Origin: a virus
Virus record (IMG/VR): IMGVR_UViG_3300018426_001942
Coordinates: 87,965-151,964 of that record
Length of the DNA stretch: 64,000 bases
Strand: one strand, 5' to 3'
Position numbers and translations under genes: made by a program. Numbering within the stretch: the first letter of the stretch is position 1; every line of letters begins with the position of its first letter. The notes beneath the pieces were generated by a model. It was given only the letters and a program-made list of their open reading frames with translations, had not been told where the DNA came from and did no database searches. Below are positions 3,012-44,900 of the stretch, one piece after another.

Positions 3012-4143
3012 AGCATTTGAAGATTTCTACAAAGAAGAAAACATAAAGCACTTATTACTCCTTGACTGGAATGGTATATTAACAAGTCCGCCATTTGCTA
3101 CTGAACAATGTAAAGAGTATGCAGATGTTTGGCGTTTTAAAAAAGATATTATCAAATTAGATCTACCTCCTGCTACTAGTAAAACTAATGCTCCTATTGT
3201 TTTAGATAACGATTTATGGCTTATACCATACGGCATATACGACGAACTTAATATTGTAGTACAAATTAAAGACAACGATGTAGTGTATCACAAATTATCG
3301 TTTGCAGGCAAAGGGCAATTTTACAGTATTGCATCAAACGGTACATCTGCGTTTAGTTTTCCTTTAGGATACGAAGATACTAACTACGGACTGTATATTA
3401 ACGAAGGTAAAGTTAGCGAACACAAACTACCCTACGAAGGCAAAAAATTACATATGGGTACTGTATATTGCAATGGCAGATATTGGAGTATGCCGAGAGG
3501 TGATAATCCCGGGTATAACAAACTACTAAGTTTCGACGGTAATAATTTTGAAAGTTTTGAGTTAGACATCAATAGTAATATTACTAGAAAGTTTAGTGAT
3601 ATAATAGTAAAAGACAATACACTTTACAGTTTGCCTTTCGGCGAAACGCCTGGTATGACAGAAATCGTAGAATTTGATACAACTACTAATAGAGCAATAT
3701 ATCATAATTTAACACTAACTAATGACTTTGCTAAAAAATATAATTGTGGCGTTTTAGTTAATAATAAAATAATTGCATTACCATATGGTGACGAATATAG
3801 CCAAGATAGTAATTGGGGTGTAGTTTTTGATACTGACACGAAAGAAAGTAAAGTTTTTGATATTGGTCTTAACTTTGGTGGCAAGTACAGATATCGTTGT
3901 GGTGTAGCACTAGACAACAAAGCAATATTTTTTCCATCTGGTACACCTAGTTGTCCTATAATGAGTGTAGATGAAAATACAAATATAAAAACATTATATC
4001 TTACTGATTATATGTTAGGTCGTCCGTATGTAAAAAATAATTTAATATGCTGTATGTCATATAGAAAAGCCGATAGACAACACTTTATGTTAATATTTGA
4101 TAGCGAATTAAATTTGCTGGGTAGCTATCAACTCTTTGCGTAG
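3001..4143 (+). CDS. Kelch-like beta-propeller protein (paralog of the upstream gene)
   Basis: Same blade motif repeated: LWLIPYG, AFSFPLG, YWSMPRG, LYSLPFG, IIALPYG, AIFFPSG. Confidence 0.75.
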   Translation: MMYKAFEDFYKEENIKHLLLLDWNGILTSPPFATEQCKEYADVWRFKKDIIKLDLPPATSKTNAPIVLDNDLWLIPYGIYDELNIVVQIKDNDVVYHKLSFAGKGQFYSIASNGTSAFSFPLGYEDTNYGLYINEGKVSEHKLPYEGKKLHMGTVYCNGRYWSMPRGDNPGYNKLLSFDGNNFESFELDINSNITRKFSDIIVKDNTLYSLPFGETPGMTEIVEFDTTTNRAIYHNLTLTNDFAKKYNCGVLVNNKIIALPYGDEYSQDSNWGVVFDTDTKESKVFDIGLNFGGKYRYRCGVALDNKAIFFPSGTPSCPIMSVDENTNIKTLYLTDYMLGRPYVKNNLICCMSYRKADRQHFMLIFDSELNLLGSYQLFA

Positions 4144-5031
4144 ATATATATCACTCAAACAGTAACATTTATCTTTACCGCATGTAATTGTACTATTAGG
4201 TAAAGTATATTTTTCTAAATTACCTATTTTGCCGCCTTGCTGACACTCGGCACGGTATATGTCTCCCCACATATCAATACTAATCATATCTAATCCTGCC
4301 CAGCATTTCCAACCTTTGTGTGCATTAAGCTCATTAACTATTAAGTCATTTGCATTAATATCTTTACCATTTAATAGTAGGCCGCCTCTGTGTAACTTTG
4401 TATCATCTAATTTACGTGTATAAGGCCAATTAGTAATAATGTTTTGCTGTGATGTTGAGTATGCACTAACTTCGTTAGTAGGATATCCTTCAATTTCTTG
4501 TTTATCTAAAATTACCTTTGGCCATATCATTACATTGTCGCTACAATTAAATAAACGTTCTGCAATATCTAATAGTTCATCAAAACTATCAGGTAACATC
4601 ATAAGATTAACAGCAACAGGACAAGTCATTACTTTTATAACTTCTATTATATGATCAATATTAGCAAATTCAGGATGATAACTGATAATCATTCCGTCAG
4701 TGTGTTCTGTTATCTCTGCGAAGTATTCTACTTTTTGACTTGCGTTGGTTAGAAAACTAAAGTATTGGCCTTGTTGTTTTACAAGTTTAGCCATGTCAAT
4801 AAAATGTTTCCAATAAGTAGGTTCGCCGCCTGAAATCCTATAGCAAATTTGTTTGCCATTAGCATCAAAGTTTTCTACAAAATTTTTAACCGTGTCCCAT
4901 TTTTTATGGCCTGTACTTCCGTCATGAAGTCTGCTTGGACAATAAGAACAACGGTAATTGCATTTATTAGATAGTGTCCAACTAACTAAAAACCAATCTT
5001 CTTTTGCAGGGTCTTTGTAAGAAAGTTTCAT
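4108..5031 (-). CDS. Radical SAM enzyme with C-terminal twitch-like domain
   Basis: CNYRCSYC, SGGEPT and LTN motifs; C-terminal CWAG...YRAEC...C....CYC. Confidence 0.9.
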   Translation of the reverse strand: MKLSYKDPAKEDWFLVSWTLSNKCNYRCSYCPSRLHDGSTGHKKWDTVKNFVENFDANGKQICYRISGGEPTYWKHFIDMAKLVKQQGQYFSFLTNASQKVEYFAEITEHTDGMIISYHPEFANIDHIIEVIKVMTCPVAVNLMMLPDSFDELLDIAERLFNCSDNVMIWPKVILDKQEIEGYPTNEVSAYSTSQQNIITNWPYTRKLDDTKLHRGGLLLNGKDINANDLIVNELNAHKGWKCWAGLDMISIDMWGDIYRAECQQGGKIGNLEKYTLPNSTITCGKDKCYCLSDIYLRKELIATQQI

Positions 5032-5684: not shown

Positions 5685-6976
5685 ATATCTCTCAATTCTT
5701 TAAACGTATTTCTAAAGTTTAATTCTCTTGTTTTGTCGCATATTTCTAAGTATTGTACAGCCGCCGGAAGTTTATGTGACCAATCTTCTGAATTCATGTA
5801 ATCAACTAAACCTAACCAACGCATTTTGCCATAAGCATTATTAATAAATTCATGTGTGTTAATACTATTAGCAAACTTACTTATCGTATCTGCGGCTTGG
5901 GCTTTTAAGTCTTGAGGTAGTACTCGCACATTTAAGTAGGACGGTAAGTACACTAAATGTAACCCTATTATACCTCCGCCATATGGCGCACGATTTATTT
6001 TTTTAAAGTTTTGATCTAACTTCCATTGTGCAAGTTCTACTAAACTGTGTACATTAAGAAGTTGTACGGCGCAAGCAAGATTAACAGTTATATGATCTGA
6101 TGTATTATCAAGTAAATGCATATTCTCTACAATACTATCCCACTTACTCGGATGTCTTATGTAATCATTTTTTTCGCCAACACTGTCAACACTAAAGTTA
6201 AATTTTACTTCTTTAAAATATTCCCACATATCAAGCAATCTTTGTGATATGTCTGTAGCATTACTATTATATCTAAGTATACAATCTTTTGCATAACCTT
6301 CGTCTATCATAAATTGTAGTATTGCATAATGTTCCGGTATGAGCAATGGTTCTCCGCCAGCAAAATATAATTCTTTTATATAGTGTGCTTGATTTTTTAC
6401 AGAGTCTAAGAAACTACTTTTCTTGTACCATACATAATCAAAACTAGGATCCCAGCCTTGATCTTGTTTCAAATCTATAAGTTCATATTTTGGATATTGT
6501 AATTTCCAATCTTTAATCCACTTTGAGCTATCATGCGGACTACACATAATGCATTTTAAATTACATAGGTTACCTAATCTTAAATCAAAGTAAGGTATGT
6601 TTACAGGCAACGTGCCATCTTCTTGTGTTTGATCAACAATTTCTTGTACATTGATCCTTTCATTCCATACCTCGGTTTCCCAATTCCTTTTGCTTTTTAT
6701 ACCTTTTGCCTCTTCTTCAAAACATTTTTTACAACTTAAAGGAATTTCATCATTAAGCATTTGCAATCTAGTATTACGCATTTGCTCACTATTCCAAACT
6801 TCTTCGATAGTATGATCACGTAGATTCATGTTAACACCATCTTGTTTAACAAGTCCTACTTCCTTGTTGTCAGTCTTGCCTGCGCCACTAGCGTTTGCTG
6901 TACAACAAACTCTTACATCGCCATTTGGTCTAGTTGCCAAATGTATCCATGGCAAGGGGCAGAATGTTTTACCCAT
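5681..6976 (-). CDS. Radical SAM enzyme with N-terminal twitch/SPASM-like Cys cluster
   Basis: N-terminal CPLPWIH...NGDVRVCC and CKKC; core CNLKCIMC, FAGGEP, YNSN. Confidence 0.92.
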   Translation of the reverse strand: MGKTFCPLPWIHLATRPNGDVRVCCTANASGAGKTDNKEVGLVKQDGVNMNLRDHTIEEVWNSEQMRNTRLQMLNDEIPLSCKKCFEEEAKGIKSKRNWETEVWNERINVQEIVDQTQEDGTLPVNIPYFDLRLGNLCNLKCIMCSPHDSSKWIKDWKLQYPKYELIDLKQDQGWDPSFDYVWYKKSSFLDSVKNQAHYIKELYFAGGEPLLIPEHYAILQFMIDEGYAKDCILRYNSNATDISQRLLDMWEYFKEVKFNFSVDSVGEKNDYIRHPSKWDSIVENMHLLDNTSDHITVNLACAVQLLNVHSLVELAQWKLDQNFKKINRAPYGGGIIGLHLVYLPSYLNVRVLPQDLKAQAADTISKFANSINTHEFINNAYGKMRWLGLVDYMNSEDWSHKLPAAVQYLEICDKTRELNFRNTFKELRDI

Positions 6977-7568
6977 TAAATTTATGTCCTATAATCATAT
7001 ATCTTGTGTACTTAGGTGTTTTAAATTCTCCTACATATGCAACATATACTTTTGATTGCTGTACAAAGTCTTCCATACTTTTTGCACATCTTACGTGTTC
7101 ATCAAGGTCAACATAGTTATTACTTTGTAGTACTACCTTTGTACCTGGTTGAATATTACTTAACCATTTGTCATATTGCTCTTGTGTTAAATGCTCGCAA
7201 CTAGTGTTAATAGCAACATCTGCATCTGTAGTGTACTCGCACATATCTGCTGTTGTGGCAGTAAATCTTCCGTCCATGTGATAACGCATGTTAATAGTTT
7301 CTGCAATAGTTTTACAAACAGGATCAATATCTATGCTTTCTATTTCAGGTATTGCAAGATCACTATTAAAGAGTAAACTTGCAAGTACTCCATTCCAGCC
7401 ACCGTAAATAGCAACATTACCTTGAAGTTTATATTCTTGCATTTGTTCTATTAACCAAAGTTTACTGTGTACTTGGCCTTTCCAAAAACTTTCTAGTGTA
7501 CGATATCGATTTTCGCTGTTACGAATTGCGTCCATCCAAAACAGTACATCTTCAATATCAACTTTCAA
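6969..7568 (-). CDS. Class I SAM-dependent methyltransferase
   Basis: VAIYGGWNG motif I variant, SIDIDP acidic motif II, ADM, INTSCEH. Confidence 0.75.
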   Translation of the reverse strand: MKVDIEDVLFWMDAIRNSENRYRTLESFWKGQVHSKLWLIEQMQEYKLQGNVAIYGGWNGVLASLLFNSDLAIPEIESIDIDPVCKTIAETINMRYHMDGRFTATTADMCEYTTDADVAINTSCEHLTQEQYDKWLSNIQPGTKVVLQSNNYVDLDEHVRCAKSMEDFVQQSKVYVAYVGEFKTPKYTRYMIIGHKFNG

Positions 7569-8544
7569 ATTGAGCTCCTAGTTTATCAAACTTGCCGCAT
7601 TGTTTTTGACATTCTTTTAAACAACCGTTTGACCATGTGTTTTCGATACTACTAAAAAAGTTACTGTCAAATATTTCTTGCAAAGTATGGTTATTAAGAT
7701 TAGGAAAATTTCCTATTTTATCCATGTAATCAATTCTACTTTCACTTACTGGTGGTAGCCATTCTAAATCTAACCAACAACAGGGTGCAATGTTACCGTT
7801 AGCAGCAACATATATAGATTGAGAGTTTTGTGCTTTGCAAGTTATTGTTGGGCTTATTTCTTGTTTTGCTTCTTCTACTATTTTTATAAAACTTTCACTT
7901 GTTTCTGTAGGGTACAAAATATCAATTGTTTTTCCAGTATCATCTAAAACATTAAATTGGCCATTTTTAAATCTACTAGAATTTTTGTACTTAAAATCAC
8001 TAAAGCCTAATTCACTTGCAAGTTGTCTACATTCATCTACTTGATGTTTGTTGTGACGGAACACTAACATATCCCATCTAGCATTGCCGCCTGCATTAAT
8101 AAACGTTTTTGCATTTTCTAGTATAGTGTGAAAGTCTGTGTTTATTCTATAGCGAGAATGTGTATCTTCTAGTCCGTCTATTCCAAATACTACAGTTACA
8201 TCTACACTAGCAAGTTCTTGCCACCATGTACTATTCCTTGCACTACCATTTGTATGCATTTGTAAATTAATGTTAGGATTTACTTCACGCAAGTATTTGT
8301 ATATGTCAAGTGTTTCAGTATTAATAATAGGATCACCTAAGTTACCACACATATTAAGTTTGTCAAGTTGTTGTATAAAACTAACTGAAAACCATTCTTT
8401 GAATGTTTCTAAGGTAATATCATCTAATGTTACATATGGCATCATAGGACCGCCTTGCATACGTCTTGGACACATCGGGCAACGTGCTTGACATCGTGAA
8501 GTAACTTCTAGATGTATGTCTCTTATTTGATCCAACTTATACAT
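7558..8544 (-). CDS. Radical SAM/SPASM(twitch) enzyme
   Basis: CQARCPMC, GNLGDP, HTNG, GIDG; C-terminal CKA...NGNIAPCC...CLKECQKQC. Confidence 0.9.
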   Translation of the reverse strand: MYKLDQIRDIHLEVTSRCQARCPMCPRRMQGGPMMPYVTLDDITLETFKEWFSVSFIQQLDKLNMCGNLGDPIINTETLDIYKYLREVNPNINLQMHTNGSARNSTWWQELASVDVTVVFGIDGLEDTHSRYRINTDFHTILENAKTFINAGGNARWDMLVFRHNKHQVDECRQLASELGFSDFKYKNSSRFKNGQFNVLDDTGKTIDILYPTETSESFIKIVEEAKQEISPTITCKAQNSQSIYVAANGNIAPCCWLDLEWLPPVSESRIDYMDKIGNFPNLNNHTLQEIFDSNFFSSIENTWSNGCLKECQKQCGKFDKLGAQFES

Positions 8545-9247
8545 TGCGCCAACCTTTGTTTAGTTCTTTTATCTGCTCAAAAACATTTGAATTTATTTCG
8601 TGTGTATTTAATGTAGATATTAAGAAGTCTAAATCTTTTGGCAAACATTTACCGTCAAATCCTCTAGTACCATCATGCCCTGGTACATCTAAATATGATT
8701 GTTTTGGTTGCACAGCAAGAAACATATCTTTTATATTATTATAGTCTGCATCAACACTATTTGCTAGATCGTAAAATATATTTGCAAACGCTATACGGAT
8801 TACAGCAAGATTATTTGAAAACATTTTTACAAGCTCTGCTTCTGCTGTAGAACATACTATTATGTCTTCATCATATCTAAGCCATGTCGGAATATCACTA
8901 TCACATCCTACAACCAAAGGACGATTAAGACAGTCTTTTTTCCAATGTCTTTCACGTAAAAACTCCGGCATGTATATTAAGCATGATTTGTTTATCTTTT
9001 TACACGTACCAAGTGGCAATGTACTACGGATTATAACCGTGTCTGCTTTGAGTTTTTCTACTTCACTAATTAAAACATCAATGTCATCTTTTGTGTTAGT
9101 AGGTATACATACAAACACTGTATCTGCATTGTCTAATACACTTCTATCTGTGCCTAATTTAATATCATGTATAACTGTATCGTCAGGTAATCCTAATCCC
9201 AATTTGGTTGCTTTGCCAACAAATCCATACCCTAATATGCCAAACAT
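8537..9247 (-). CDS. ugd: UDP-glucose/GDP-mannose 6-dehydrogenase family protein (short; lacks the C-terminal domain)
   Basis: GYGFVG, FVCIPT, RSTLPLG, PEFLRE, AELVKMFSN, and catalytic GFDGKCLPKD. Confidence 0.85.
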   Translation of the reverse strand: MFGILGYGFVGKATKLGLGLPDDTVIHDIKLGTDRSVLDNADTVFVCIPTNTKDDIDVLISEVEKLKADTVIIRSTLPLGTCKKINKSCLIYMPEFLRERHWKKDCLNRPLVVGCDSDIPTWLRYDEDIIVCSTAEAELVKMFSNNLAVIRIAFANIFYDLANSVDADYNNIKDMFLAVQPKQSYLDVPGHDGTRGFDGKCLPKDLDFLISTLNTHEINSNVFEQIKELNKGWRNV

Positions 9248-10230
9248 TACTTTTTCCTCTTAGGTATTTTGCTATCTGCACTACTTACACAACTATTAGT
9301 AACACACTTAGATGGTGTCTTAAACAGCGTAAAACCGTCTGTAAGCGTGCCTAAGGGTTCTTCATGGCAACTGTATGCCCGCTTTACTTCATTGCTACGT
9401 ATAATGCAACTTTGATACCCTGCATTACAGGTCCAACCTTTAAACTTATTAAAGCCAAAAGCATTAAAACGTTCTGCTTGATCTAATTCGTACTCTATTC
9501 CTTTATTGTCTTTGAGTAAGATTTGTGCGACTTGTTCGCCTTTCCATGTTTGTGGGAATCTTGTTCGCATTCTAGTAATTTGCTCATCTGTGTAACCTCC
9601 AACCACGAAGCTGGCGGTAGGGTCGGACTGGGGTTTGAGAGTGACGTTAATACCTCTGGTGGCAAATCGTTCCAAACGCTCGTAAAGCTCTTCAAACTTT
9701 TCTGGAACCATAACTTGATTGATCGTAACATAAACGCCTCCTTCCATAAGTGCAAGACATTTATCTCCAAAATCTTGTTCGTTAGCAAACTCATCATGGA
9801 AACTTGCTGTAATGCTTCTGCGTTGTAATGTACTAGTGTATTTAATAAATCTGTTCCACCAAGATTGTGCAGGTGATAAATTTGTTGTCATGTGTAGACT
9901 TTGATACTCTGCATCAGGATCCTCTGCATAATATTTTACTACAGTACCAAATTGTTTATACGCTGTAGGTTCTCCTCCACTAAAACTAAAGTGGAAATCT
10001 GTAAAGTTATTTGCACGAGCTTGTGTCTTTATACTATCTATGGTGTTTAAGTATAATTCTAAATCTTGATGATCAGGGGTACTAGATCTTGCGTATGGCC
10101 AGCAATAAGAACAGTTATAATTACAAAATCTAGCCAATATCCAAGAAACATTAAAAAGATGGCTCTTTAACATCGTTTGTTGGCCAAACTCTGTTATATC
10201 TTGCCAAGGTATTTGGTCGTAATTACTCAT
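9247..10230 (-). CDS. Radical SAM enzyme with C-terminal twitch-like domain
   Basis: CNYNCSYC, SGGEPT, MTTN; C-terminal CNAG...RAYSC...C....C. Paralogous in layout to 4108..5031. Confidence 0.9.
   Translation of the reverse strand: MSNYDQIPWQDITEFGQQTMLKSHLFNVSWILARFCNYNCSYCWPYARSSTPDHQDLELYLNTIDSIKTQARANNFTDFHFSFSGGEPTAYKQFGTVVKYYAEDPDAEYQSLHMTTNLSPAQSWWNRFIKYTSTLQRRSITASFHDEFANEQDFGDKCLALMEGGVYVTINQVMVPEKFEELYERLERFATRGINVTLKPQSDPTASFVVGGYTDEQITRMRTRFPQTWKGEQVAQILLKDNKGIEYELDQAERFNAFGFNKFKGWTCNAGYQSCIIRSNEVKRAYSCHEEPLGTLTDGFTLFKTPSKCVTNSCVSSADSKIPKRKK
9495..9731 (-). CDS. Candidate overprinted 78-aa protein nested in an alternative frame of the radical SAM gene
   Basis: AAGGAGG (9743-9737) lies 5 nt upstream of an ATG at 9731, with an open frame to 9495. 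Host-frame codons at 9601-9690 end in G/C in 18 of 30 cases, which is atypical for this AT-rich genome. Confidence 0.5.
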   Translation of the reverse strand: MLRSIKLWFQKSLKSFTSVWNDLPPEVLTSLSNPSPTLPPASWLEVTQMSKLLECEQDSHKHGKANKSHKSYSKTIKE

Positions 10231-11899
10231 AAAATCTTTCCTCTAACCACTGAAAGTCATTTATAAGTGCTAATACATCTGGCTTGTTTTTATTAGCACT
10301 ACCAAATTCTCGCCCTTCAATTGCACCTTTAATAGCATACTCCCCATACGGACTGTCTTTTCCTACTGTGGTCCAGACTTCTAAACGCTGTTCTGTTTCC
10401 TCGTCTTCCTGTCCTTTAATAATTTTACTTGAAAGTTTTGTACATTCTCTAAATGCACTTTTCCATGTGTTAAATGGATCTGTGTTAAACACTGTATAAT
10501 TACTTAGTTGATCAACAACCTTAAATTTATCACTAATACTAGTTGTCATATCAGAACTATTAACATCTACATTTGCTGTAAGCTCAGTAGGCAATAATTT
10601 CACACCACCATACCCGTACTCTAAGTCATTAATTGGATTTTTACTTCTCCAAACATGAACTGTAGTTTCCTCCCATACTGGCACTTGATAGTTAAAATTA
10701 AAATCATCAACTAATTCGGCATCGCCGTCGACAACAAAAAACATATTTGTAGAACAAAGTTCAGCAGCTTTTTTGTGTGCATTATGAATTCCTTTTACAT
10801 CTCTTACCCATCTTAAATTAGTAAAAGGATTGCTTGTTCTAATTTTATCTTGTATCATTGAAAAATGTTTATCAGCATTTTTTTCTTTATAACTTATAAA
10901 CACTACATCATACGGTATAGGCTCTGATATAATTTCTTCATGCTCTTTTCTAGTTACTACATACCTACTGTTAAATTCTCTTTTGCCTAACTTGTGCTTT
11001 GTTGTACTTAGAACTACGCCATTGTGATAAGTAGGCTCACCTCTAAACATGTGTTTGTATACATGATGCATTTCTCTATCAGCATCATAACGACCATCTG
11101 TTGGACTATAGTAAAAGTCAAATATTGTTTGATCTGTAATTTTTACGTTATCCCAAATAATCCAAAAAAGAGGACTTGTTTCTGTTTCAACAATTTTTTC
11201 ATATTCTTCATATGTACTAATTACATGCCTAGGATATCTAAATCTACTTACTGGCTGTTCATTTTCTTTTCTGTTTATTATAAACCTATGTTCTATTTCT
11301 TTTTTTGATAACGGCTTATTCACAGAAGCTAACAACAGTCCTCCATGATAACTTATAGTATCATTACAAAATGTAGGCCATACATGATTTTCGTTTCTAT
11401 CATAACTATTATGATGACTAAAGTATGACGAAAGTATAACACTTTCTGTAATTTCTACATTCTTCCAAACACACCAAAACATTTCGGTATGACTCTTTTG
11501 CAATGCTTCTTCGTAATCTTCATATTTGTCAATATGAAATATATCATACACAGAAGGCATGCTTGCTACAATATCTATTTCTTTTTTATTAACAAAAAAT
11601 CTATGTTTAATTTCTTTTTTTGATATATGTTTATCTTTAGGAACAAGACAAACACCATCAAAATGTTTGTCATTTAGAAATGTATGAACATACTTTTTAT
11701 CCCATTCGGGAACATCGTAGTCAAAATTAAAATTATCTACAATTTCTATATCGTCCCAAACGACATAAAACATATCCGTAAGAGACTTGCGCATTGCCTG
11801 TTCAAAACTTGATGCGTACTTAACTGTTGGAAATCGTTTACACAATTTTTCGTATAGTGCTTTGTTTCCTTTTTGTGATACATAAATGATATCATACAT
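10223..11899 (-). CDS. Glycosyltransferase (GT-A fold) with three degenerate N-terminal repeats
   Basis: C-terminal domain YDVVFISY..GIHNAH..FFVVDGD (DxD)..YGYGGVKL..WKSAFRE, preceded by three ~105-aa homologous repeats. Confidence 0.75.
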   Translation of the reverse strand: MYDIIYVSQKGNKALYEKLCKRFPTVKYASSFEQAMRKSLTDMFYVVWDDIEIVDNFNFDYDVPEWDKKYVHTFLNDKHFDGVCLVPKDKHISKKEIKHRFFVNKKEIDIVASMPSVYDIFHIDKYEDYEEALQKSHTEMFWCVWKNVEITESVILSSYFSHHNSYDRNENHVWPTFCNDTISYHGGLLLASVNKPLSKKEIEHRFIINRKENEQPVSRFRYPRHVISTYEEYEKIVETETSPLFWIIWDNVKITDQTIFDFYYSPTDGRYDADREMHHVYKHMFRGEPTYHNGVVLSTTKHKLGKREFNSRYVVTRKEHEEIISEPIPYDVVFISYKEKNADKHFSMIQDKIRTSNPFTNLRWVRDVKGIHNAHKKAAELCSTNMFFVVDGDAELVDDFNFNYQVPVWEETTVHVWRSKNPINDLEYGYGGVKLLPTELTANVDVNSSDMTTSISDKFKVVDQLSNYTVFNTDPFNTWKSAFRECTKLSSKIIKGQEDEETEQRLEVWTTVGKDSPYGEYAIKGAIEGREFGSANKNKPDVLALINDFQWLEERFYE

Positions 11900-32964: not shown

Positions 32965-32970
32965 TATTTA
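32965..32970 (-). promoter_or_regulatory. Putative late promoter TAAATA overlapping the stop codon of the giant gene
   Basis: AATAAATA, then an AGGA SD and the ATG at 32946. Confidence 0.55.
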
Positions 32971-35900
32971 TTCGGGTAATTCACTTATTGCTCCGCGCAA
33001 GAAATTACCAATGTCATTTTGAACATCTTTAAGTGGAGTTCCTGGGTCAGTCCACAATTTACCTACTTTCCTAATAACAATTAGCTTCTGATTTTCTTTC
33101 ATAGGTTCAGTAAGTGTTAAAATATTACCGTTTACACTAAACTCTGCTGGTGTATTTACGTCACCTTGTGGCGAATCAATAGCCAATGTTGGATCAAACT
33201 TTTGTATAGCATTTTTGTTTAATCGTTTGCCAGCGGCAAACACTTCAAATTCATTAACGCTTCCAGGTACAAAGTCAAGTGTAAATTCAGTTTGTCCTTC
33301 AGTTACAGGGTCTACTGGTGACCAAACAATAGTTTCGTCTTTGTAAGGGATATTTTTATCTATAGAGCCACCGTAAATTTTAGTTCCTACTGGATAAACT
33401 GGCTTTGCTCCTGTCCCTAAAGTTCCCCTTCTTAGTTGTCTAAGTTCGTTATTAGTTTTAGCAAAATATTCTATACGTTCGCCGTCAATCCATATTACGC
33501 CTGGCCTGTTAGCACGTTTGTCTGGGTTAGGTAAAAGCTCTGCGTTTTCTACTATAACTACTTTTAAGTCATCATATTTTAGATCTTGTGCTAATTCTAT
33601 TCCTTGATTATTATCAACCCTCTTATAGTGTGTTCTATTCAATATGTCCTTGAATTGCTTCCATGCTATAGTCGGTGTACTAATAGGTGCTGTAAAATGT
33701 ATTACATCAACAACATCATTTTCACTTGGTTCGTTTACAAGATGTATTATTCTTCCGTTTGGATCTAGTTTATAATCAACTGTAGGTGTAAGCATATTAC
33801 CATTCAACATAACCCAAACATATTCTACGCCTAATGCAGGTTGTTGTAATAAAATTCTTCCTGCTGTTAGAGCATGATATTTAGAATAATTTTCAGATCC
33901 AGGTGTAAGAGTACTTCTATTAATAACATCATAACTTATTCTATGAATATCCAAAACGTCATGATTTGTAAATGTATACACATTCATTACAGCGTCTTCA
34001 GCTGGGGCTGTTTCAAATACAACTTGATCACCAATTATATTGTATCCGCTGTTCCTTAAATATATGCTTAAAACATCTCCGTTACTTACTAGATTATTTT
34101 CTAATATAATTGAACTTGTACCAATGTTAATTAGGTAGTCTTCAACTTGGGTAAGTTTAGATCCGTTTAAGTAAACTTCTAACTGAGCTGCAACAATACT
34201 CGAAGGTGGTACTTGGAATGTGTCTAGAGTATACTCACGAATTCTATCATTTGTGATTGTTAATACTTTAGAATAACCTGGCTTTTGTATAACTCCATCA
34301 ATTTCTACAATACTAAAGAACTCTGCTGGTGTTGCATACTGAGATGCAATAGAAAGATTATAAACTGTACTCGAGCCGTCAGCAACTATAGAATCTTTAT
34401 TAACTTTACTGTAATTAATTTGTGTATTATTAGAATATATTTCATAATCAAGTCTTGTACCAGCTACTGGTGCAATTGGTGAAAACTTAAATTCTATAAA
34501 TCCGTTGTCACTTTTTCTTGCAATTAACTCTGGACCGTCTGGTATAATACCATCTCGTCTTAAAAAGATACTGTATCTATCATTCCACATAATTTGTGTT
34601 TCGTAAATATCTTTACCATCTTCTGTAAGAATAGTTCCTATATCGATAATATTTTGCCCGTTAACTCCTATAGTTAATATAGTCAATATTTGATCTTGAG
34701 CCAGCGCATTGTTAAATGTTATTTTTAAATTTTTATAATCTACAGTATATTCTGATTTATCAACTATTGTATTACCTAATTTTACAATAACAGCATCTTC
34801 AGAATTAGGAAGTAAACCTAAAGGATATTCTGTAGTACTTCCGTCTGTTAGATAATTTTGATTATAAACTTGACCTTGACCTTCACCTGTTCTTTCATAA
34901 ACAGTAATATCAACACTATCTAAAACCTGTCCTGCTACTAATTCTTCAGGACCTTGGCTAGTAAGCGGAGTAACAAATAGATCACCGTCTAGTATTATGT
35001 CATCTGCATTTACGCCAGCAGCATTTCCATAATCTATAGTGCCTCCATCTAATTGTGTATCATATGAATCAGGATCAGGTAAGAAACTACCATCTGATGT
35101 AATCTTTCTTATAGTAAACACATCACCGTCATTTAATTCAATGTCGTTATCTGCTAAATTAATAATTGTAGTAACACCGTCGCCTGTTATTGTTTGTATT
35201 AGTGCATTTTGATTGTTACCATTTGGATATAACGGATCGTCAATTCTAATTGCTTGCGCTTGGCCAGCACGTTTTAAATAGACATTGTATACTATTTCAT
35301 CTTCAAGTGGCTTAGATAACTCTACAGCAACAGTTGTACCATCAGCAATGAATACTTCATCTTCAAAAGTATTATCATAACTATCCCAAGTATCTGTACC
35401 ATAATCGTCTACCATCCAACCTGATGTGCCTTCGAAACCAAAACTTTTAACTTCAACGCCGCCGTAGTCAACACCTGTCATAAGCTGGCCTAAATTTTTG
35501 CCAAGCATTCCAGTAGTTGGACTATAAAGTTGATTAATTCTATCTTGTGCATTAAGCATCAAAGGATTCTTTTCATATTCAACTACAATAATGCTGTTTA
35601 ATTCAGGTGCTGTTGTGAATTGAATTTGACCAAACTGTCTATTGTATGTGTAAGTTTTATCTTCTATATTTGAAAAAGTATATTGACTACGTAATAGTAA
35701 TTCACCGTTGACAGTAACCTTAACTTTATTTCTCTTTAAGTTCATAGGATACTTTAGTTGGAAAGTATCATTGATTGCTGTTCCTGTAAATGTTTCTGTT
35801 TCTGGCAATGACAGTATAAAGTACTCGCCTGAAACTCTATCAAATTTCATTTGAACATTTAGTGTTCTAACAACAGTTTCACCAATTTGTGCAGACGCAA

Positions 35901-38900
35901 CGGCTGTTGTAGAATCATCTGCACCCGAACCTGATATTGTTACAGTTGGTGCGCTTAAATATCCAGATCCTGGATTAGTTACTATAATTTTAACTACTTT
36001 TCCGGCGCCTAAATACGCTCTTGCTGTAGCGCCGGTTCCGCCGCCGCCGGTAATTGTAACAGTTGGAGGAAATGTATATTTGCTACCTCCATCATAAATG
36101 TTAATACCTACAACTTTAAATCCATTATTATCTTTCCAATTTTTTGCAGGATACTCGTCAAAGAATGCATCAACACCGATAATTTCATTATCAATAACTT
36201 TAACAGGTTTTGTCTTAATTGCATTTTCACTAAAGTCATAGAATGGTGGTAAATCAAAATCTGCTGTAACTGTATTAGTATTTTCTAACTTATCATAAGA
36301 GCTTACATATTCTCTAATATTAGTTTTGTAAGGTTTAACTTCTCTAATATAATCATTGTAACTACTTAAATTATCATTTTGATAATTAATTTTTTCAGTT
36401 AAGCCGCCAACATTATGTTTTGCTTTAACAAAACTAGTTTTGTAAACCCAGTCAACATTTTGCTGTTCAGATAGTACATATCTTATACTTGCAAAGAATA
36501 GTTCTTGCCATTTAATTTTTAAGTCATCAACAAAAATGTCATTCTTCAAAGCTTCTAATATTTTTCTTGCTTCTGTAACAGGCTCTGTATCAAAGAATCT
36601 ATTATCAAAACCTAATAAATCATAACCAACTGTATTTTCTACAACATCGTAAAGTTTGCTACTGATTTCTATAGTGCCGTTTTGTCTACCTATAGTTTCA
36701 TAATCAATTGTATAATCAGCACTGTTAGTATTCTTAATACGTTTAAGTAAGAGCCAACCGCCTGTTCCGATATTTGCAATTTTAACAATTTGTCCGATTT
36801 TTGCGTTTGCCGATAAAAGCTGATAACTTTCATCAACACGATGATCAATTCTAGTAAACTGATTAGTGTTAGGTGCATACCAATCAATATATTTCCAATA
36901 TGCTGTTGTATCAAAACTTGAAGACAATTTTCTGTCCCATAAGCCCGAAGTTGCATTCCAACTGTAAATAGCCCACTTATTATCAACAGTAATGTCATTT
37001 TCTACATAGATTGATACAGGTCTAACGGTAATAACAGTGTTTTCATCGTACCCTGTGCCGCCATTAATTATGTTTACTTTGTTAATTTGTCCTAGTGGAT
37101 TAATTTCTAAATTAAAATCTAAACCAGTACCTTTACCTACAACAGTAAAACTAGGTCCGTGTCTAACTGTTGAAGTTTCTATATTATAAGTAGGATCTGC
37201 ATATCCTCTACCTGTATTGATAATTCTGATATCAGTTACTACGCCGTTATGTACTGACGGTATTAAAGTTGCTTGTGCAATTTTGTTTGTACCAATAAAT
37301 TGTACTTCGTCCAAAGTGTCTACTTTGTAATCATAAAGTCTTTCAGTAACAAATGGAGGTTGATCAACGCTATTTAATGTGTCAAAACTAAAGTCATCAA
37401 CAATAATAGTTTCTTGCAAGGCAATATTAGCTCTTTCAATTACTTGCTTAAATGCTTCTTGTCTATTTACAAACCAACTTTGTCTAGGACTATTTAAATT
37501 GCCGTATTTGTCTGCAGGACTAAGTTCAGGATCAGGTACTGTACGACCCCTATCATCATAACCAATTAAACTATCAATCCATTTTCTTTCCAAATCTGCT
37601 CTAGGAACACTTGTTTCTAAACCTTCAGTGACCAATTGATATTCTAAATGTCTATTTTGCTCTTGTGTATCTTGCGTATAATAACTTACGTGCAGAGCTA
37701 CTTCTTTATCTTTTATCAAACTTTCACCGTTGTAAATAACAAATCTGTTATCACTAAGTAGAGCAACAAACTGATATCCTTGTCCTCTTGGGTCTCCAAT
37801 TAGTTTTGCAACTTCTGATGCCGGTAAACTTCTATCTTCTGTTGCGGGTATTGTTAATTTATTTTTTACCCAGAAGTAATATTTTGTATTAAAAGTTTTT
37901 GTTGCTGAATTATATGAAAGTTTTTGGCTATATGCATCTACACCATACTTAGATTGTCCGCTTATGCCTTGAGCGAAACCTCTAGCTGTATCTGCTAGTG
38001 TATCCCACTCATCTGGAGGAATAGAACTTTCTACCCACTCATAGACATCAACAGAATAGTTAGGAATTAATTTGCTCCAGTAGTTTGCTTGAGTGGCTAC
38101 ATCTTCTTGATATGCATTAAAGAATTTTGCGGTTGATAAATCCCACCACAATTTGCCCACATACTTTTCTTCCCAGTTGTCAGTTTCACTAAAGAAGTTT
38201 GGCAAACTTGTGACATTATATCTAGCTAAATCAATATTAGATTTAAATGTTAATTCTTGTTCAGCAGGTCCTGCTATCTTACCTTGCACAGGATCGATGT
38301 AATCAATGTATGATACTAATTTATCTGTAACAGTATTGTACAAGTAAACTGACTTAATTGCATTAACGTCTACAACATTGTTTGGTGTTCTAATAGTTGT
38401 CCAGGGTTTTTGATCAGCAGCAACCTTATAATCAACCCAACTACCAGGATTGATTCCTACTTCGTCTACATTAGGATCTCCAGGTATACCAACATATATG
38501 TGGTTTTTATTTGCTAACACTTGGTCGCCAAACCTACCTGCTTGTAATACTGTAGAATCACCGCCGTAGTCTAATTCTTCTCCAAGAATATATGCGTCTT
38601 TTATAAACTGATAAAGTCTTACACTTCCGCTGTCTATTTTCTTATCCGGGAATGTTGTAAATGTTTCATCAAAGGATGTTTCGCCGCTATCAAAGGTTGT
38701 ATTGGTTATTATATCTCCGGCGCCGCTACTTACAGCAATCAAGTCATTTGTTGCGGTAACTTTAATACCAAATCTTTCAGCAGGTGTTTTCGTACCTGAC
38801 AATGTTTGGTGTAATTCATACTGTAATCCGTCTTTAGCATAAACGTAAACTTTACCTGCATGATATGCATCTTCACTGTTTTCAGGATCTCCAATAACAA

Positions 38901-41900
38901 TAATGTTTCCATTTTCAGATATATCTAAACTACTACCCCAACCAGTATTAGAAACTGGTGCAACAATAGTTTGACTTAAAACATATCTGTCATCTAGTAT
39001 TCTATAAATTAAAACTTTGTTATCTTGGTCAACTGATTCATCTGTAATAATACTCGTTACAAGAATTTGTCCATTTTCGCTAACTTTAACTTGCTTTGAA
39101 AAATCAATGACTTGCTCGTTTAAATCGTCAAACACAGGATCATTGTAAATATTAACATCATTTGGAAGTGTTGGTAGATAATTTACTTGGTTGCCTAATA
39201 TTTCCCATTTTAATAAATTTGTAGGAATAACATTTTTGTTAAAAGTCAATGCACTATACAACTGATTATCATATAATACAATTTCTCCAGTTTTGTAAAT
39301 TGCATCCGGAGTGTATGGTCCTCTATAATGAGGATTTATGTCAAGAGCAAATCTATATGTTTTTCCGTATTTGTCAGTACCGTGTTTAATTACGGTAAGA
39401 TTTTCTTTAGACCCTACATAGAATCTATATAAATCTCCATCTTGGCTTACAGCAACTTGTTTACCTACATTGCTACCTGTTGAACTTCCAGGAATAGTAT
39501 ATGTTCCTTGATTTGTCCAAACGCTTCCTACACTACTAAAGATACTATAAACACCTTGATTAGTAGGTTTGCTATCTGTTGATCCTGATGTATCTACAGG
39601 AAGATTGTAAACAAGTCTCCAGTCACTATTAGATGTGCTAGGTATGCTTGCTTGGGCTTCTGCTCCTGCTTCTGTTAAATTTTCTTTGTATATCCAAAAC
39701 TCTTTGTTTACATATGCAAAAGTATTTAGATCAGCAAACTGTTCCAATCCACCATATGATTCAGGATGTGCAGGAAACGGTGTTCCCCTTTCCATTACAG
39801 CAATTTTTCCTGTATTTGATCCTGTTAAAGAAATTTTATTAATAGGTCCCATAATACGCAAGTTTGCTTGCGGTGGATTTCCTTCTTGTGTTTCTAATAG
39901 CAATCTATTACCTTGTGTAAAGTTTCCTGTAACTTCTTTAAGATATACTCTACCTTGGTTAATATTACGTCTTATATAATATGCTACTCGACCTCTTGCA
40001 CCGGTGATCTCATCTCTAATAAAATCACCATCAGCTCCGCCTATGTTTACAATATTTCCTAATGTGTCTGTAAATACTTTACCCTCGTATGCAGGCTCAA
40101 AGAAGTCACCAACATCAGTATCTTGGTCTGATAATATATCAATATCTGCTGTTTGGAATTTTGTAAATGTAAAGTCAATATATCCTTCCCATACATCAAT
40201 AACAGTATGCAAGTTATCATTTAGATAAGATGCTTCGATGCCAAGTAATGATTCGTCAACTGGATCTGCTTGGTCGTCGATAGCAACCCTAAACTGATCA
40301 CCTGGTTGGTTAATTTCTCCAGCAAGCGTAGGTGGAACTCGCATTAGCCATCTTGGATCTAAAATATTTTGAATGCCGTCAACATCTTCGTTAATGTATG
40401 CTCCGCCTCTATGAGATAATATTCCAATAAATCCAGGTTCATCTCTATCTGGGAATAACGTACCATTTACATCATTAAGAATATTTTTATAAAAATTAGG
40501 AATTGTTCTTGCATAGGAATCAGTATTTTCATCATAAACTAGTATATCTCGATACACTAAGCCATAAGCAGGAACACCATAATCTTTTGTTTCTGTAAAT
40601 TCGTCTGACGTAACATATGTACCATTAGTATTGATATACCACCAGCCACCGATGCCGCCTGATGTACCATTAAAATTAGGTTGGGTATATGTACCAATTT
40701 CAGTACCTGCAGCATTTGATATTGTGCCGTTTTCTGTAAATACACCATTAGTGTCTTTAGTATAAATTACTAATTTAAAATCTCTTGTAAATGTTTTGAA
40801 AACAGTTGCAGAGCCACTAGGTGTTGAAATAACATCACCTTCTTCAGGCGGGTCTGTATATGGTTCAAGTAGTAATACACTATCAACCTTTTCAATAATT
40901 TCATGTTCGCCGTCTATAAAAGAGCCACCCGGTTCGTTGTATTGTGCTTGCACATTTTGCGAATTGATTCCTGTGGGGAATAGTTCTACTGAAGTATTTG
41001 GTCCTTCATTTCTATTAAAGTTTGTATAAAAATTCCAATTTAGAACAAGTTTATCTTTTACTTTAGTGCCTCTATATTGATCAAAAGGCGCAGCTATTAA
41101 TAAGTGATCTGTTTCGGTATTAGGTAAGTAAGGACTTCCTTGTAAAACTAATGTAAGTAAACTACTATCACTTTGTCTTTCTAAATTTGTATAGCTATCA
41201 AATGTACTAAATGCAACACTACTACTTTCTGGAGTAATAGTTCTTATAGACTTCCAATAGTTTTCATTAAACTTAACAATATCATTTTCGCTATATGCTG
41301 AAGTTTTACTATAATCTCCTTTATAACTAGATGCAACTCCACTTGCTGTACTAGATCCTACTATAATAAACTTTCCATCGGGGCTCATTGCAACACTTGC
41401 ACCAAATCTATGATCGTCATCCATTGGATACAATGCTGTATCTAAATCTAATTCAGATTCGTATAAGAAATTGCGTAAATTTGACCCTCTTTGATAGGTA
41501 TAAACTTTACCCTTATTATTATTTGCACTGTGATCTGCTATTGCTATTCTTGTATTAGCACTATTCACAGTCATTTCTGAACCAAACTCGTAAGTACTGG
41601 AAGGATCGTAATTTGCAGGGTTATTATAGTGATCTGCATCTAAAAATGCATCAGTTCTTTCAGCAACAAGCCAATCTTTAGTAGTTCCGTCTATCCAAAT
41701 CTTTTGTTGATTTGCAACTCGATCTTCCATTACATAATTTGCATTTTTAACTGTATCAAATTTGACTGATCTTAATTTACTGATATATCCGTCTACTTCT
41801 TCTAATGCTTCTATGCTTTGATTTGCACTAGCAAATACATCAATTTGTGTAGGTCTAACTGTTTCTATAATGTAAAACGCATCATTTGCTGTTGAAGTGT

Positions 41901-44900
41901 TAGATACTCCTATAATATCGCCAACCTTAAATGAATGTGCTTTATTAAGATAGAAAGTACCTCCAGGATTTGCAGGTAATTCTCGTGCATCAGCACTTGC
42001 ACTAAATGCTTCAATTTTAGTAACTCTTATATCTGTAGTAATATGCTGTACTACATCCCAGTCTCCAGTTTTTCCTGTTATCCATATATAATCATTTGCG
42101 CCTATTCTATCAATATTTGCTGTTAATATATCATTTCTGTCGTTAATTCTGTAAACTACATCACCTTCGTAAACATAACCAGCATCTCTTGTGTATTGAT
42201 TATAAAGATCTACTACTGGAAATGGTTTATGATCGTAGTTTTGAGGCTTTTTATATATGTCACTAGGAGTTAGTTTATAAATAGTGTCGGTATCGTTAGC
42301 CGGTTTACTTAACACAAGCTCTATAGGCTGTGGATTAGTTTTTATTTCTGCTTCGTCAATTAGAAATTCTACTTCTTCAAAGTTATCTGTAGCACCATAT
42401 TGTCCTAACCTAATAGCCCATTCTTCATAAAACTCTAAACTTTCTTTATCTGCGCTTGCTAAAGCATCAAACAGTTTTGTTAAACTATTTTTTGTTCCTT
42501 TATCTTGCAACATGCCTTGATAAAATTTATATTGACTTACATCATCATTAATAATATTTTCAAGATACTTACGTTTTTGATATCCTATTAAATGCTGAGC
42601 ATGTTTTTGCTGTTCAATATCAAAATTATCTGTATCAAGATCATAAAAGTCAGCAAACTGATTAACTTTATATTCAAAGTTTGTTAATAGTTTAGATTCT
42701 GGTCTTTCACTTAATCTTTCCCATTGATTATCGATGAATACTTCTGTGCCACTGATATTGTTAGTTGCTACATAGTAAAATTCTTTGTACTTAATTAGTT
42801 TGCCGATACCATAATCTTTCCAAGGTTCCCAATCTCTTACTTCAGCTTCATCATAAATGAATCCTGGAATATTAAGGCCACCGCTCCAGTTGTCACTTCT
42901 ATACCCTGTAACCTTTATACGTTCTTGTCTATAGCCCGCTTCTTGATCATAAATTACATCACCAAACTCTGTTACGTTGTCTAAAAGAATTACATGTTCT
43001 CGTTGTACTAACGGCAAACGTATACTATAAATGCCATCTGCTGTATTTTTTACAGACAACCCAAAATCATTTTCACTGTCTCGTGCAATGCTACTAAACG
43101 ATCTGTCTAATTTTCTGCCGTCGGCCTTTAATAAACTATAATCATAAAAATCATCAAATATATTATCAACTACATGATAGGGTTTATTAAATTTAATTTG
43201 TTGAGCACCAGGACTAATCGTAAGCACACTTCCTGCGGCCCAATTTTGTGTAGTCCAGAACATAAATTCTTTAACACTAAATGTCCAGTCCTCAACTATT
43301 TCGATATCATTATTATAATATTCAAATATAAATCCTTGTGCTTTTAAATATGCTTCATATCCTAACAAGAAGTCTACAACCGCTTGTACACTATTAAGTT
43401 GAGTTCCATATGATATTGTTTTAACACGGTTAGTAAATTTACGTCTTAGAACACTATCTCTACCGCCTACTTGTGGCAATGCAGCAAGTTTAGACATTTT
43501 ATCATCTGCAAATGTTGTTCCACTAACATGACTTTCTTTCACTCTATAAAAGAAACTATCAAACCTAACATTTTGTCCTTTAATATATTGCTTTCCATTA
43601 TCCCAATCTACAAATGATTCCGATATGCCTCCAACATTGATACTAGGATCTGATTGTGTTTCAATTGCTTCAAAATAATCAAACGAACTTTTAGCCTGAT
43701 CGTATCCTTTTATAATAAATCCGCCAGTTGCTTTTTCAATAACAACACCACTGTAGTTTGCAATAGTTACTGGAGTAGAGGTATTTAAAAATAATTTGTA
43801 GTTTTCTGGTGGAACAAATACATTGCCTTCATTTAGAGGTGTTCTACTATCTAAAATTAATTTAAATTTACTTTTATCAGTAAATCCTCCAACTTTTAAT
43901 GCAAGTTTATTTTTTAGAGTAGTTAATGTATTTTGATATTCGTCATAATTTGTGTTTATATCACTTACAATATAATTGTAAATGTAGTTTACTAATCCAG
44001 AAGTTATGACACGCTGATTATCTGTATATGTATTTGGAAATACCAAATCTCTTAATCTTAAAATAGTATTTGACTCACTGTATACAATGTTGCCTACAGC
44101 ATTTCTTGACATTCTTGATAAATCATAGCCTAGTCCGATTACTTTTGCTGGTTGATTTAATATCCAAGATGTAATTAACGCAAATGGATATTCACTACCA
44201 CGTCTCCATGCTGTTTCAGTAGGTGTTTCGTCGCCAAATGTATATGCATCTCTAGCTCTAATAGCAACATAATTTTTTGCATAGTTGCTATCTAACGGAC
44301 TTAAAAGTTTTCCGTTGGAATCTACTGGAATATGATTTAGTAAACCTGGTCTTTTGTATTTAGAATTTACTACTGTAGGTACGCCAGGTTGGCGAATTAC
44401 ACCATTTTGTAAATCTTCCCATAATACAAAATTGTTGGCTGTGTAGGGTGCCGGCCCGTATACTTCTTCCCACCATTTTGGTTTAATTGTAAAGCCGAGC
44501 ATTTCCCAAGGATGAGTATGAGGACGATCTGTATCATAAGCATCTTTATAAACAGCTCTCCAAAAACCTGGTAATTTTTTACCAGTAGGTGAAGACATAT
44601 TTTTATAATTGTATCTAAATGTAAAAGTGTCTTTATAAAAATCGTTATTGGTATAATTAGGATCGCCTGCGATAACAGTCCATTGTACAAAATCAGATAC
44701 CATGCCTGTATCTATGTTTGCTCTTTCAAATCCTGTGTCTCTATAGTTTCCGCCTACAAAATCATGAATATTAAAAATATCAGGATTATATTCTTGCTTT
44801 AAGTTATTGTAAACTCTTCTTTCAAATTCTAATATTAAATCGTCTCTAAAATCGTCATATGCAAACACAATACTACCGTCGTGTCCTTGAATAACTTTTC

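Follow-up and report, generated by a model that had tools for sequence, protein, structure and literature searches.

A 64,000-nucleotide (nt) stretch of viral DNA (positions 87,965 to 151,964 of IMG/VR virus record IMGVR_UViG_3300018426_001942, referred to here in its entirety as the window) carries on its minus strand a gene for a radical S-adenosylmethionine (SAM) enzyme, and inside that gene, displaced by one base, lies a second open reading frame (ORF) of 78 codons. A first-pass annotation had proposed that this nested frame is a real hidden gene under dual coding. Comparison with relatives of the enclosing, or host, gene bears this out: the frame is open in 59 of 72 lineages, its start is kept and synonymous variation in the host gene is suppressed over the overlap. 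It is very probable (with a probability of roughly 0.85) that the nested ORF is a conserved and selected gene, born de novo by overprinting and translated by internal initiation. The codon comparisons described below show that the +1 frame is kept open by selection, which also fixes individual residues of the nested product; internal initiation is the presumed route by which that product would be made.

The elements concerned are listed here by position in the window.

9247..10230, minus strand: host gene, encoding a radical SAM enzyme of 327 amino acids (aa), from the list of ORFs and a match to Pfam Radical_SAM (E = 1.2e-10).
9737..9743, minus strand: Shine-Dalgarno (SD) sequence AAGGAGG, supplied by host codons (G)AA GGA GG(C), Glu-Gly-Gly.
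9729..9731, minus strand: ATG start of the conserved 78-codon form, supplied by host TAT GTT, Tyr-Val.
9495..9731, minus strand: candidate nested gene, 78 codons plus a TAG stop (9497-9495), in the +1 frame of the host gene.
9582..9731, minus strand: conserved core of the predicted nested protein, approximately residues 1-50, from the alignment, AlphaFold2 and codon columns.
9495..9581, minus strand: variable basic Lys/Ser/His tail of the predicted nested protein, of dispensable length, with a predicted local distance difference test (pLDDT) score below 50 at residues 63-78.
9601..9690, minus strand: patch of rare C-ending host codons (GCC, ACC, GTC, CTC, CCC, TCC and others) that encode Pro, Ser and Thr in the nested frame.
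9732..9797, minus strand: upstream extension of the open frame, with an alternative ATG at 9797 that gives a 100-codon form, confined to the window and a few relatives.

The nested frame is a complete ORF that lies out of frame inside a full-length, conserved radical SAM gene, the product of which has a CxxxCxxC core and a Cys-rich tail at its C-terminus. When the host codons GAA GGA GGC GTT TAT GTT are read one base out of register they give AAGGAGG-CGTTT-ATG (9743-9729, minus strand), as had been described at first pass, with a spacer of 5 nt (CGTTT) between the SD and the ATG. The translation that follows is identical to the one given earlier and ends at the TAG noted above. In most relatives TAA or TGA stops lie in the +1 frame just 5' of the conserved start, because the Leu-Met-Asn/Lys codons of the host gene force them.

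The length of the nested ORF is by itself no more than chance would provide, the window holding 20 nested ORFs of at least 78 aa, 17 of them antisense and 3 sense. The other two sense ORFs, at 36690-36998 (minus strand, 102 aa) and 44397-44690 (minus strand, 97 aa), both sit in a giant gene of 5005 aa at 32968-47985. A null model was therefore applied in which the host protein is held fixed and synonymous codons are drawn according to the usage of the gene outside the stretch, the probabilities being obtained by exact dynamic programming. Under this null the window's gene is expected to contain 6.9 stops in the +1 frame and the probability that the frame is open is 3e-5. The logic is similar to that of the single-genome codon-permutation method of PMC6188560. 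The codons of the host gene are also distinctive within the stretch, as had been claimed: over 9601-9690 18 of 30 end in G or C, compared with 79/298 (27%) in the rest of the gene (Fisher p = 3e-4). The accompanying suggestion, that the C residues of this patch are what make the second frame rich in Pro, Ser and Thr, holds in that the rare host codons there do encode such residues.

More than 580 homologous host genes were found in IMG/VR, of which 160 loci were taken, yielding 154 full genes that were aligned by codon; dereplication at 97% nucleotide identity left 72 lineages with 64-78% nucleotide identity to the window. A single-sequence query from a lineage without the ORF found just three loci, and an alignment query was used in its place. 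Stops in the alternative frame of homologues had been proposed as a check on the hidden gene, and in the 59 ORF-bearing lineages there are none: reading from a common position with a usable start codon, the +1 frame stays open over 67-108 codons. The TAG stop is shared by 32 of the 59 and most of the others end 6-11 codons earlier. In lineages L025, L029 and L100 the nested frame extends by another 30 codons into the host gene, to 108 codons in all. When the host protein is kept constant, the number of stops expected per lineage is 4.7-8.0 and the probability of an open frame ranges from 1e-5 to 8e-4. The 13 ORF-less lineages have 1-7 stops each, mostly 5-7, which matches the neutral expectation, so that stop counts across the 72 lineages are bimodal, being either zero or about the neutral number. 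The +2 frame and two antisense frames of the same stretch are full of stops. An antisense ORF of 101 aa (9523-9828, plus strand), which is codon-aligned with the host frame, was considered and rejected as a selected frame since it is open in only 13/40 homologues; it seems to be incidental to the codon shift and the avoidance of TTA and CTA. The window also contains a paralogous radical SAM gene at 4108-5031 (minus strand), with 82 of 277 aligned residues identical to the host enzyme; over the homologous stretch the paralogue's +1 frame is broken by seven stops.

The choice of codons for Leu, Ile and Val reveals how the frame is kept open. A codon of the form xTA creates TAA or TAG in the +1 frame when it is followed by A or G and is harmless when followed by C or T. 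Inside the ORF xTA was found in 0/505 cases in the dangerous context, compared with 78/237 in the harmless one, and in the dangerous context it makes up 52% outside the ORF and 39% in the same stretch of the ORF-less lineages. At three columns the codon switches with the base that follows it (0/41 vs 10/11, 0/9 vs 45/50 and 0/34 vs 14/24). The effect is bounded by the limits of the ORF: where the context is dangerous, xTA makes up a fraction of 0.59 in the final column ahead of the ORF, falls to 0.00 throughout a run of nine columns within it, stands at 0.1-0.3 over the dispensable tail, reaches 1.0 at the stop codon itself and ranges over 0.27-0.86 beyond. The nine risky columns are not frozen, as they vary among ATC and ATT, GTT and GTC, CTC and CTT and the like while avoiding what is otherwise the commonest codon for the residue. 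By parsimony at least 86 codon changes have occurred at these columns among the 59 lineages, and none created a stop.

Synonymous variation had been put forward as a further check, and it is indeed suppressed. Among ORF-bearing lineages the synonymous p-distance is 0.46 in the overlap and 0.68 in the flanks, a ratio of 0.68 (bootstrap confidence interval (CI) 0.57-0.80), whereas the ratio is 1.03 in the ORF-less lineages. The corresponding non-synonymous ratio is 0.96 in ORF-bearing lineages and approximately 1 in both classes. Particular codons are also fixed. When a rare-codon column is defined as one where the dominant codon is present in at least 75% of lineages and has a usage of no more than 20% elsewhere in the gene, such columns account for 11/42 of the host-conserved columns in the overlap, 0/141 in the flanks and 0/34 in the ORF-less lineages. 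Examples from the ORF-bearing lineages are GCC (97% vs 6% elsewhere in the gene), TCC (90% vs 2%) and GTG (81% vs 5%). The fixed rare host codons encode Pro24, Pro25, a Ser/Pro run and Trp43 of the nested frame, and at one column where the host residue varies among Ala, Ser and Thr the nested codon remains Pro. Trp43 and Pro24/Pro25 look selected in the nested frame because it is rare host codons that specify them.

The signals for initiation are less uniform. The 7-nt AAGGAGG of the nested ORF is the longest SD match in the window, where annotated genes reach a maximum of 6 nt and 27/37 have an SD of at least 4 nt. A conserved SD-ATG had been named as a feature to look for among relatives, and of this pair it is the start that is kept in all 59 ORF-bearing lineages, the SD not being universal. 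The canonical start column is occupied by ATG in 33 lineages and by TTG in 19; 52/59 ORF-bearing lineages have an ATG at that column or no more than five codons upstream, and the remaining 7/59 have TTG behind an SD of 7-8 nt. An SD of at least 5 nt is present in 33/59, and one of 7-8 nt is present in 24/59 ORF-bearing and 0/13 ORF-less lineages. The SD and the ATG are weaker evidence than the open frame because the host protein (Glu/Lys-Gly-Gly and Tyr/His-Val) partly dictates both.

It also became apparent that the distribution of the ORF does not simply follow the rest of the gene. Eight changes of ORF state are needed on a tree of the flanks and three on a tree of the overlap region, with the caveat that selection on the overlap may itself draw ORF-bearing alleles together in the latter. 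The flanks of the window's gene are sister to those of the ORF-less lineage L064, with support of 98-99 in the Shimodaira-Hasegawa-like approximate likelihood ratio test (SH-aLRT), and its central 270 nt is closest to lineage L027 (88% identity). From this conflict between flanks and centre it follows that the central segment was exchanged by recombination, and the ORF-bearing segment behaves as a recombining allele. Eight ORF-less lineages, including the most divergent genes (64-66% identity), are basal in the region tree, as would be expected if the ORF originated once within the family. Two further ORF-less lineages, L076 and L079, are nested among ORF-bearing alleles in that tree and look like cases of secondary loss. 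The stops in the paralogue at 4108-5031 imply that the nested gene arose after the duplication or in one paralogue only.

The predicted nested protein is basic, with a median isoelectric point of 9.4 across lineages. An alignment of 26 nested sequences defines a conserved core of approximately 50 residues made up of an amphipathic basic helix, an invariant-like DLPPE motif, a Ser/Pro-rich loop and Trp43, followed by a basic tail that varies in length, its end in relatives falling 6-11 codons short of that in the window or as much as 30 codons past it. The AlphaFold2 model (mean pLDDT 69, predicted template modelling score 0.28) has helices at residues 2-22 and 25-32 (pLDDT 82-86), a weaker helix at 41-64 and a disordered tail; the amphipathic basic helix that had been foreseen at the N-terminus corresponds to the first of these. 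On inspection of the alignment, no dedicated predictor having been used, the N-terminal helix is amphipathic and charged (Lys6, Lys11, Lys14) and has no hydrophobic core. Trp8 and Cys55 are invariant because invariant Met codons of the host gene followed by G or C force them, and their invariance carries no functional information. The nested peptide had no match in Pfam or PHROGs and none among 5.8 billion protein cluster representatives, there was no usable match in the ESM Atlas, and a Foldseek search of the PDB with the AlphaFold2 model also gave no match. A hidden Markov model of the 26 nested peptides, searched against 1.84 billion proteins, had as its sole match a 686-aa tandem-repeat artefact, which was rejected. 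This absence of sequence, fold and language-model neighbours is the profile of a de novo protein. A predicted complex of the host radical SAM enzyme with the nested peptide scored 0.01, to which no weight is attached either way.

The window is part of the genome of an uncultured T4-like phage, with a gp46/SbcC-like nuclease (best cultured match 50% identical), tail-fibre proteins and the 5005-aa giant protein. A nucleotide search gave no match among cultured phages; at the protein level the sole match was Campylobacter phage CP21 (22% identity), too remote to be of help. The nested ORF lies in a long minus-strand operon with at least five further radical SAM genes, an epimerase and a UDP-glucose-dehydrogenase-like gene. 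This enzyme cluster, which includes sugar enzymes, sits behind the tail-fibre and giant structural genes. The ORF-less lineages retain the same enzyme neighbourhood; the neighbourhood is mosaic and no link was found between the presence of the ORF and any neighbouring gene. The gene immediately downstream of the host gene differs among relatives (6969-9247; loci L001-L163), being UDP-glucose-dehydrogenase-like in some, a 199-aa ORF in others and a SPASM enzyme gene in others again, independently of ORF presence, and upstream a glycosyltransferase-like repeat protein occurs among relatives in short (~227 aa matched) and long (~540 aa) forms. In the window the downstream gene (8537-9247, minus strand) encodes a 236-aa UDP-glucose/GDP-mannose dehydrogenase-like protein that matches the central domain but only a portion of the NAD domain at the N-terminus (profile positions 74-173), and looks like a truncated dehydrogenase. 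Judged over positions 8800-10700 of the window, the phage and several strains 90-95% similar to it co-occur in salt-marsh metagenomes of many studies. One salt-marsh metatranscriptome contains exact-match contigs over 9234-9660, which covers part of the ORF; these contigs do not resolve transcript ends, strand or translation and are a weak hint, compatible with transcription.

A number of observations weigh against a selected nested gene. The ORF is missing from 13/72 lineages and is therefore dispensable, and an SD is absent from 16/59 of the lineages that have the ORF. Much of the apparent conservation of the peptide is forced by the conserved host protein, Trp8 and Cys55 included. The trees on which the parsimony changes were counted have weak support, and recombination blurs them. 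An OLGenie-like estimate of dNN/dNS (changes non-synonymous in both frames relative to those non-synonymous in the host frame only) was 0.99 (CI 0.71-1.43), similar to that of control frames and flanks, a measure of low power here since host constraint dominates both classes of site. As it indicates no extra amino-acid constraint, selection on the nested sequence is probably modest and concentrated in a few residues. To this must be added that no sequence or fold relative of the nested protein was found by homologue, profile or Foldseek searches, and that its recognition score in a protein language model is low, at 1678, where known families usually exceed 2300.

The mechanism that best accommodates these data is that the messenger RNA of the radical SAM operon also holds an internal ribosome-binding site, AAGGAGG, 5 nt before the ATG at 9731, at which ribosomes would initiate independently in the +1 frame to give a basic protein of ~78 aa. 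The product would consist of an N-terminal amphipathic helix, the DLPPE and Ser/Pro-rich loop, a second helix and a disordered Lys/Ser/His tail. Its gene would have been born de novo inside one orthologue group of phage radical SAM genes, as suggested by the lack of any homologue and by the in-window paralogue without the ORF. It would have spread since as an allele of the central segment through intragenic recombination, being absent or lost in ~18% of lineages.

Internal initiation is not the only way in which an open +1 frame might be read. A programmed +1 frameshift with an SD-like stimulator, as in prfB, would yield a fusion in which the nested sequence follows the N-terminal ~166 residues of the radical SAM enzyme; a strong SD-like AAGGAGG does lie within the translated gene, and a selected open frame suits a frameshift product equally well. 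The host, however, reads GGC GTT TAT GTT ACG at this point, with no zero-frame stop or obvious hungry or slippery codon, and the 5-nt spacing to the ATG is typical of initiation, the prfB stimulator lying 3 nt from the shift site. All ORF-bearing lineages moreover keep an ATG, or a TTG with an SD, at or near the 5' border, most have +1-frame stops immediately upstream of the start, and 16/59 are without any SD, which together make a frameshift very unlikely. The scenario of a compositional or recombinational accident, in which a GC-richer central allele happened to have an open +1 frame and was shared through recent descent, is less probable again. Nested ORFs of comparable length are common in the window, the segment recombines as an allele (eight state changes on the flank tree against three on the region tree, and the L064/L027 mosaic), and its G+C content at third codon positions (GC3) is 0.43-0.46 in ORF-bearing and 0.18-0.20 in ORF-less lineages. 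The A-ending codons ACA, CCA and GGA are nevertheless equally frequent inside and outside the ORF and xTA stands at 33-36% wherever it is harmless, so that a general GC shift does not account for the codon patch. Nor is the segment young, since its non-synonymous divergence equals that of the flanks (ratio 0.96), its synonymous p-distance is still 0.46 and it has sustained at least 86 changes at risky sites without one stop. The least probable of these explanations is a non-coding constraint, such as RNA structure, an internal promoter or regulatory site, or a protein-binding DNA element, of which the open frame would be a by-product. Lowered synonymous variation and fixed rare codons could stem from any constraint on the sequence, but the avoidance is limited to one phase and to stop triplets, with TAA, TAG and TGA frequent in the +2 phase, and it spans ~200 nt bordered by start and stop codons. 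The overlap stretch also folds no better than shuffled sequence (z = +1.27), and RNA structure, suggested at first pass as a possible source of the GC3 anomaly, does not account for it.

If the nested ORF is a translated gene, as favoured here, it may, with low confidence, encode a small accessory protein made together with the tailoring-enzyme island associated with the tail fibre. That it partners this island, as a substrate or leader-like peptide or as an assembly or regulatory factor for radical SAM enzymes that decorate the tail fibre or the giant virion protein, is improbable; were it so, it would be the first such factor born de novo inside the gene of its own enzyme, and alleles with and without the ORF would tune virion modification. 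Still more doubtful, and speculative, is the proposal made at first pass that the peptide serves the island's twitch/SPASM radical SAM enzymes, either as a membrane-associated scaffold or as a Trp-containing substrate akin to a ribosomally synthesised and post-translationally modified peptide (RiPP). It shares the island with six radical SAM genes, its sequence includes Trp, Cys and Pro-rich motifs, and its Trp43 is set by a rare host GTG in 81% of lineages. Against the scaffold stand the cationic amphipathic nature of the helix and the lack of any transmembrane or hydrophobic segment for membrane insertion. As regards a substrate, Trp8 and Cys55 are dictated by Met codons of the host gene, the sole Pfam match in the host enzyme is Radical_SAM, with no PqqD-like domain, and in the part of the island that was scanned the neighbours (SPASM, epimerase and UDP-glucose dehydrogenase) were likewise without PqqD. 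The setting among tail-fibre and giant genes, together with the sugar enzymes, suggests virion-protein or glycan targets instead, and the same enzymes surround the host gene in lineages without the ORF.

This nested ORF is never reported by gene callers, although selection maintains it in the majority of phages in a widespread T4-like family from marine and salt-marsh settings. It offers a well-controlled case of probable gene birth by overprinting in a large double-stranded DNA phage, in which the ORF-less alleles serve as an internal negative control. Odd patches of codons in phage enzyme genes can flag hidden genes, and recoding or codon optimisation of these radical SAM genes would silently destroy the second gene if, as seems very probable, it is real.

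Phage genes embedded in others are known from the spanin pair of lambda, where Rz1 lies within Rz, and from T7, with 18.7 in 18.5, and P2, with lysC in lysB. Rz1 in Rz is the closest analogy, being a small gene (60-100 codons) on the same strand, in the +1 frame and wholly inside a larger phage gene, and it shares with the nested ORF a proline-rich product and a ribosome-binding site of its own. The differences are as marked. The host gene here encodes a Pfam Radical_SAM protein in an operon of tailoring enzymes and not an i-spanin in a lysis cassette; by inspection of the alignment, no dedicated predictor having been applied, the nested protein has neither a signal peptide nor the Cys of an L-x-x-C lipobox; nothing ties the nested gene to lysis genes, and no functional link is seen between the two products.

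A broader comparison is with the overprinted accessory genes of viruses that arose de novo, which are reviewed in PMC8227390, and with overlapping genes detected from codon-permutation nulls in PMC6188560. The nested gene resembles these in being an orphan with atypical codons, partial predicted disorder, a restricted distribution and weak purifying selection, and in having been detected through an excess of ORF length given the host protein. It differs in that it occurs in a large double-stranded DNA phage of the T4 type, where genome compression is no obvious driver, and in that it appears to segregate as a recombining allele within a single gene family.

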